637 nucleotides of DNA from Escherichia coli (GTDB lineage: Bacteria > Pseudomonadota > Gammaproteobacteria > Enterobacterales > Enterobacteriaceae). The translations under genes and the position numbers were made by a program. This document shows positions 1 to 637 of the stretch, piece by piece; position 1 is the first letter of the stretch; every line of letters begins with the position of its first letter. Where the stretch lies: assembly GCF_003334385.1 (NCBI RefSeq), contig NZ_QOWN01000158.1; one strand, given 5' to 3'. Under the pieces are notes generated by a model. That model saw only the letters and a list, made by a program, of their open reading frames with translations. It made no database searches and was not told where the DNA came from.

Positions 1-88
1 TTGCGTTTTGTAGGCTGTCAGGGATACTGTCCCACGAATGGCCACCTGTAAGCTCCAGATGACCATTTTTGTTATTCTCCACAACGAG

Positions 89-637
89 TTAGTTCTTCTT
101 TTCGGATCCGGCACTTCTGGGGGGGAAATCCAGCGATGGCTGGATTATGTCGTCAATTAAAAATGCGGCGAGTAGATTAGCAAATATCCACGCTTTCGCG
201 AGTTCAGGTTCCTTTGCACGCAAAGCATCCAGGTGCAGCAAACTTTTGAGCCGCTTAAAAGCCAGTTCAATTTGCCATCGCAGACGGTAACAATCAGCCA
301 CTTGCTCTGCTGAATATTCATCTTCCGGTAATGATGTTAGCAATAGCACATGGCCCGCTGCTTCCAGCGTTTCCGCCTGAACTACTCGTCCTTTTCGACG
401 ATTCTCGCTGAGCAGTCGGGTTTTACTGATTAATGCTTTTTCGGGAGGAAGTGATACGGCAATGAGACGTGCCGGAAAGGGAGCTCCGGCTTTTTTATTA
501 CCTGAATTGCCTATCATTACAGTGGTTTCACCGTTCTTACCGCAATCCAGCCCGCGCAGAAAACCCATCATGTCAAAGCGCATTCCTTCTGCAGTTAACC
601 AGCGCAATCCTCGCCAGTGAACCCGGACGATATAATC
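89..637 (-). CDS. insL: IS4-family DDE transposase, IS186-type, C-terminal part only (5' end of gene lies beyond the right window edge)
   Basis: Minus-strand ORF with TAA stop at 89..91. The reading frame stays open from 607 to the window edge at 637 (upstream codons read DYIVRVHWRG, no stop). The track start at 605..607 is TTG, not ATG, so it is an internal Leu codon. The translation contains YRLRWQIELAFKRLK, an exact fit to the IS4-family Y-(2)-R-(3)-E-(6)-K signature that carries the catalytic Glu of the DDE triad. The whole visible peptide matches what I recall of the E. coli IS186 transposase InsL; this is recall, not a database search. Confidence 0.88.
   Translation of the reverse strand, partial: DYIVRVHWRGLRWLTAEGMRFDMMGFLRGLDCGKNGETTVMIGNSGNKKAGAPFPARLIAVSLPPEKALISKTRLLSENRRKGRVVQAETLEAAGHVLLLTSLPEDEYSAEQVADCYRLRWQIELAFKRLKSLLHLDALRAKEPELAKAWIFANLLAAFLIDDIIQPSLDFPPRSAGSEKKN
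245..289 (-). other. YREK catalytic signature of IS4-family transposase (Tyr 287..289, Arg 278..280, Glu 266..268, Lys 245..247)
   Basis: Direct translation of the minus strand: tac cgt ctg cga tgg caa att gaa ctg gct ttt aag cgg ctc aaa gives Y R L R W Q I E L A F K R L K, with spacing Y-2-R-3-E-6-K. Confidence 0.85.

Follow-up and report, generated by a model that had tools for sequence, protein, structure and literature searches.

The window (the whole stretch of DNA analyzed here, 637 nt from E. coli) is almost certainly an internal slice of IS186/IS421, a 1339-bp element of the IS4 family, and carries codons 189-370 of insL, the single transposase gene of the element, on the minus strand. 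The features of the window are given below by window position; L001 is a chromosomal copy of the element.

1..88, minus strand: non-coding DNA of the insertion sequence downstream of the transposase stop, placed by coordinates on L001
89..637, minus strand: 3' part of insL (IS186/IS421 transposase), codons 189-370 and the stop, placed by translation, by exact match to part of the 370-aa product and by the annotated CDS
89..91, minus strand: TAA stop codon of insL
158..637, minus strand: part of the DDE_Tnp_1 domain that lies in the window, residues 189-348, placed by the Pfam match and the secondary structure of the model
245..289, minus strand: C1 region, Y-(2)-R-(3)-E-(6)-K, with Y305, R308, E312 and K319 (YRLRWQIELAFKRLK from residue 305)
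266..268, minus strand: E312, the putative catalytic glutamate, from its invariance and the helix in the model
605..607, minus strand: TTG used as a start codon by the ORF track, in reality the internal sense codon Leu199 of InsL
base 637, minus strand: point at which the window edge cuts off the 5' side of insL

IS186 is a long-characterized insertion sequence of E. coli that belongs to the IS4 family and has been known for decades. Read as its reverse complement, the whole window occurs letter for letter in IS186A of E. coli K-12 MG1655, a sequence that carries a mobile-element annotation and the CDS insL1/b0016. When the window is compared to the known system, IS186 (IS186A/B/C)/IS421 with the transposases InsL1-3 (WP_001300563.1, b0016), all 637 bases are identical, residues 189-370 of the protein agree throughout, and the stop codon and the non-coding DNA downstream of it are the same; the only difference is the window boundary that cuts the gene. 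By megablast the window was found at 8,482 places in 2,190 of the 5,426 complete E. coli genomes. The best match had at least 99% identity in 2,698 records, many of them with 100% identity over all 637 bases, and the matches were annotated as transposases of the IS4-like element IS421 family or the IS186B family. The same 370-aa protein goes by three names in the databases: 'IS4-like element IS421 family transposase' (PGAP), 'IS186B family transposase' (partial copies), and 'IS186/IS421 family transposase' (K-12).

In the mechanical list of open reading frames the gene is entered at 89..607 on the minus strand, as a 172-aa protein with the start codon TTG. The first-pass annotation had claimed that this start is an artefact, that the frame upstream of it is open to base 637 and encodes DYIVRVHWRG, and that the 172-aa ORF is the C-terminal part of a longer transposase, with IS186 InsL and a length of about 370 aa as a guess. 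The codon itself can be read directly from the sequence, as the plus strand has CAA at 605..607, which is TTG on the minus strand. When 89..637 is translated on the minus strand, 182 sense codons run uninterrupted to the stop, and the peptide begins with DYIVRVHWRG, as had been stated. The ORF list takes TTG as the start because there is no upstream stop within the window and its rule picks the first ATG, GTG or TTG in an open frame. Ten open codons are little proof that a protein continues, because a stretch of ten codons in random sequence is open with a chance of (61/64)^10, or about 0.6; homology and longer contexts therefore had to decide.

Three contexts were examined in full, namely L001 on a chromosome, L002 on a plasmid, and L003, which is the copy in K-12. 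In all three the annotated CDS is 1113 nt long and has its stop codon in common with the window. On L001, where window base 1 corresponds to position 2501, the CDS lies at 2589..3701 and encodes 370 aa. In each of the three contexts the frame reaches an ATG 564 nt past base 637, at the window-equivalent positions 1199..1201, and it was open to the annotated ATG in every copy inspected. An in-frame stop just past base 637 with no transposase homology upstream was not seen in any copy examined. The 370-aa translation is uninterrupted, is identical to K-12 InsL1, and equals RefSeq WP_001300563.1, so that both the suggested identity and the suggested length of the protein were borne out. The fragment encoded in the window comprises residues 189-370 of InsL and begins with D189; DYIVRVHWRG corresponds to residues 189-198, and the supposed start codon is Leu199 inside the 370-aa frame. 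Among 24 full-length relatives with 41-88% identity, D189 is nearly invariant and R193 is invariant. The N-terminus of InsL is real, because in these relatives the alignment runs collinearly from the first residue and neither M1 nor W8 varies. Thus, the TTG 'start' of the 172-codon ORF is an ORF-calling artefact of a window that cuts a longer gene. For this particular copy, the continuation of the frame past base 637 is expected from the identical copies elsewhere, and the real gene would begin at the ATG 564 nt past base 637 and its product would be a DDE transposase of 370 aa whose RNase H-like fold is of the Tn5 type.

The ends of the element lie outside of the window. In an alignment of the L001 context with that of L002, CATAAGCGCTAACTTAAGGGTTG on one side and its reverse complement on the other mark the limits of identity, and a repeat finder places perfect terminal inverted repeats with this sequence at L001 2416-2440 and 3734-3758, 1293 nt apart, in an element with a full length of 1339 bp. 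The nearer terminal inverted repeat is located about 60-82 nt beyond window base 1. Since the terminal repeats are beyond the window, the window is wholly within the element. A 10-bp direct repeat, GGATCACTCC, flanks IS186 in K-12, and an 11-bp direct repeat, GGGTATGGGCC, flanks it in L001. No matching target-site duplication was found at the plasmid copy L002 (around 2418 and 3756), where the flanks are GGGGCATCGGCC versus GGGTAAATCCCC; this lack of a matching duplication suggests a rearrangement or a recombination between copies after insertion. In L001, IS186 interrupts a gene for a group II intron reverse transcriptase/maturase (ltrA; 1033-2416 and 3755-3892), and the CDSs beside the element are annotated as N- and C-terminally truncated halves of ltrA.

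In a different reading of the cut gene, the IS186 copy sampled by the window has decayed or been interrupted, insL does not continue beyond base 637, where another insertion sequence or a deletion endpoint might follow, for instance, and the 182 codons are a fragment of a true pseudogene. Interrupted copies of IS186 do exist: in the matches H1-H7, IS1A lies within the region of the window, and both halves of the split insL carry a partial-pseudogene annotation. With coverage of 80% or more required, the window is present in 2,709 records, slightly more than the 2,694 with the full 1339-bp element. However, at the level of records more than 99% of the genomes with the window also carry the full-length element, and the window ends in the middle of a string of codons with no sign of a junction, its edge being an arbitrary cut and not a biological boundary. 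We judge a pseudogene fragment to be very unlikely because the window has no mutation relative to the active IS186A of K-12. The reading that is retained is that of an internal slice of IS186/IS421 in which a longer gene runs off the edge.

Several InsL-containing sequences in the databases differ from the 370-aa protein. In H1-H7 the window match is in two pieces over 1414 bp, which is 777 bp longer than the window. The split of IS186 by IS1A (L004 1501-2914) falls at about 335-350 in window-equivalent positions, the base not being mapped exactly. Many partial InsL proteins are also present in the databases. Additionally, four database proteins (P0002, P0004, P0006, and P0008) are 451-585 aa long, are 94-100% identical to InsL, and have unrelated extra Pfam domains (4Fe-4S and others). 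These longer proteins are probably read-through products or mis-called fusions at IS186 insertion sites.

The full protein matches the Pfam domain DDE_Tnp_1 (PF01609) over residues 107-348 with an E-value of 3.6e-26. As the match starts at residue 107, 82 residues of the catalytic domain precede the window edge. The part of DDE_Tnp_1 that is encoded in the window runs from the strands that follow the second Asp, through a beta-rich insertion subdomain and the last core strand, to the catalytic helix. With the NCBIfam model of the IS4 family (NF033592) the full protein scores 133.3 bits versus a cutoff of 115, and the window fragment alone scores 91.5 bits, which is under this cutoff. Four acidic residues do not vary in the alignment of the 24 relatives, namely D115 (in VDGT), E154, D170 (in DRGF), and E312; Y305, R308, and K319 are likewise invariant. 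It had been proposed that the first two aspartates of the DDE triad should be found upstream, outside of the window, by alignment to relatives. The alignment identifies them as D115 and D170, which are indeed outside because both are upstream of residue 189, the first residue of the window. E312 and the complete YREK motif are within the window.

The family to which these residues belong was described by De Palmenaer et al. (2008, PMC2266710), who define the IS4 family by the signature Y-(2)-R-(3)-E-(6)-K, the glutamate of which is the Glu of the DDE triad. Only the definition of the family and the consensus of the ends are taken from that paper here, and IS186/IS421 is not named in its main text. 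Like the IS4 family DDE transposases, InsL is encoded by a single ORF (370 codons) with no programmed frameshift, and it has a DDE triad and the full Y-2-R-3-E-6-K signature. Outside of the window, target-site duplications in the family range of ~8-13 bp were found together with terminal inverted repeats that start with 5'-CA; the 10-11 bp duplications of IS186 fit this range and its ends begin with CAT. The end consensus of the IS231 subgroup, CAT-------AA--TAA--- (PMC2266710), fits the IS186 end CATAAGCGCTAACTTAAGGG, a match that is judged from the ends and not from transposase clustering. The ends of IS50 begin with CT, whereas those of IS186 begin with CA (PMC2266710).

A structure of InsL was predicted with AlphaFold from the 24-sequence alignment (mean pLDDT 82.4, pTM 0.81). 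In the model, D115 is within the first core strand (110-120), D170 is located right after the fourth strand (165-169), and E312 is on a long helix (298-322). The layout of the triad in this predicted structure is the canonical one for RNase H-like DDE enzymes. When the predicted model was used as the query for Foldseek against the PDB, the only significant matches were five entries of Tn5 transposase, with E-values of 3.6e-8 to 2.2e-6, a probability of 1.00, and a TM-score of about 0.44. The Tn5 (IS50) transposase (PDB 1MUH/1MUS) is therefore the best structural match to the predicted fold, and it has in common with InsL the RNase H-like core, a beta subdomain inserted between the second Asp and the Glu, and the YREK motif. 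The two proteins differ in that they are only 14-15% identical and InsL is about 100 residues shorter. HMMER searches of the PDB sequences with the single protein and with the 24-sequence profile did not reach Tn5 transposase and gave chance-level matches (E about 0.3-0.5). For this reason the triad was mapped by family conservation, predicted secondary structure, and the fold search, and the link between InsL and Tn5 rests on motifs and predicted fold. From family conservation and the Tn5 paradigm, D115, D170, and E312 are the likely catalytic residues, and as a set they would coordinate the two catalytic metals of cut-and-paste transposition.

The similarity to Tn5 brings up a second reading, in which translation truly initiates within the gene, at the TTG of codon 199. 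Tn5, the closest structural relative of InsL, makes an N-terminally truncated inhibitor of transposition (Inh), and by analogy the product of codon 199 would be an N-terminally truncated, catalytically dead transposition inhibitor. A purine-rich GAGGA stands immediately 5' of the TTG at 605..607; however, its spacing to the TTG is zero versus the usual 5-9 nt. As there is no spacer, GAGGA is not a credible ribosome-binding site. TTG is also rare as a start codon, and the segment that contains codon 199, directly behind the strand 189-194, is conserved. The product would be without two of the three catalytic residues, whereas the Tn5 inhibitor loses only the N-terminal DNA-binding region and not half of the catalytic core. 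None of the annotations among the inspected records (L001, L002, and K-12) uses codon 199 as a start. An internal start was rejected on the Shine-Dalgarno spacing, the conservation, and the annotation, and we consider it extremely improbable. Hardly any credence can be given either to the function that such a product might have, in which the 172-aa C-terminal fragment of InsL would down-regulate the transposition of IS186, for instance through inactive heterodimers that form via the C-terminal helix.

The truncation of insL of IS186/IS421 by the window edge is ordinary and already known, and nothing new about the biology of IS186 comes from the window. Its value is limited to quality control: ORF tracks that are made on short windows give false starts where a gene leaves the edge, and "TTG-initiated short proteins" at window edges should not be interpreted.

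The remaining features of the window are minor. A scan against Rfam (E <= 1) gave no match in the window, and a promoter scan of the window gave no promoter-like sites. Two terminator-like hairpins were found in the window versus 0.6 +/- 0.8 expected by chance, which is not significant. One terminator-like hairpin is on the plus strand at 471-500, antisense to insL, and consists of GCCGGAAAGGGAGCTCCGGC followed by TTTTTTATTA; it may be coincidental. A single short hairpin was found in the window, a perfect 8-bp inverted repeat at 127-146 with a loop of 4 nt (AATCCAGC gatg GCTGGATT), which is located in the 3' end of the coding sequence. Additionally, a run of seven G is present at 117-123 (C7 on the coding strand), in the Phe-Pro-Pro codons near the C-terminus of InsL, and this homopolymer is potentially prone to slippage.
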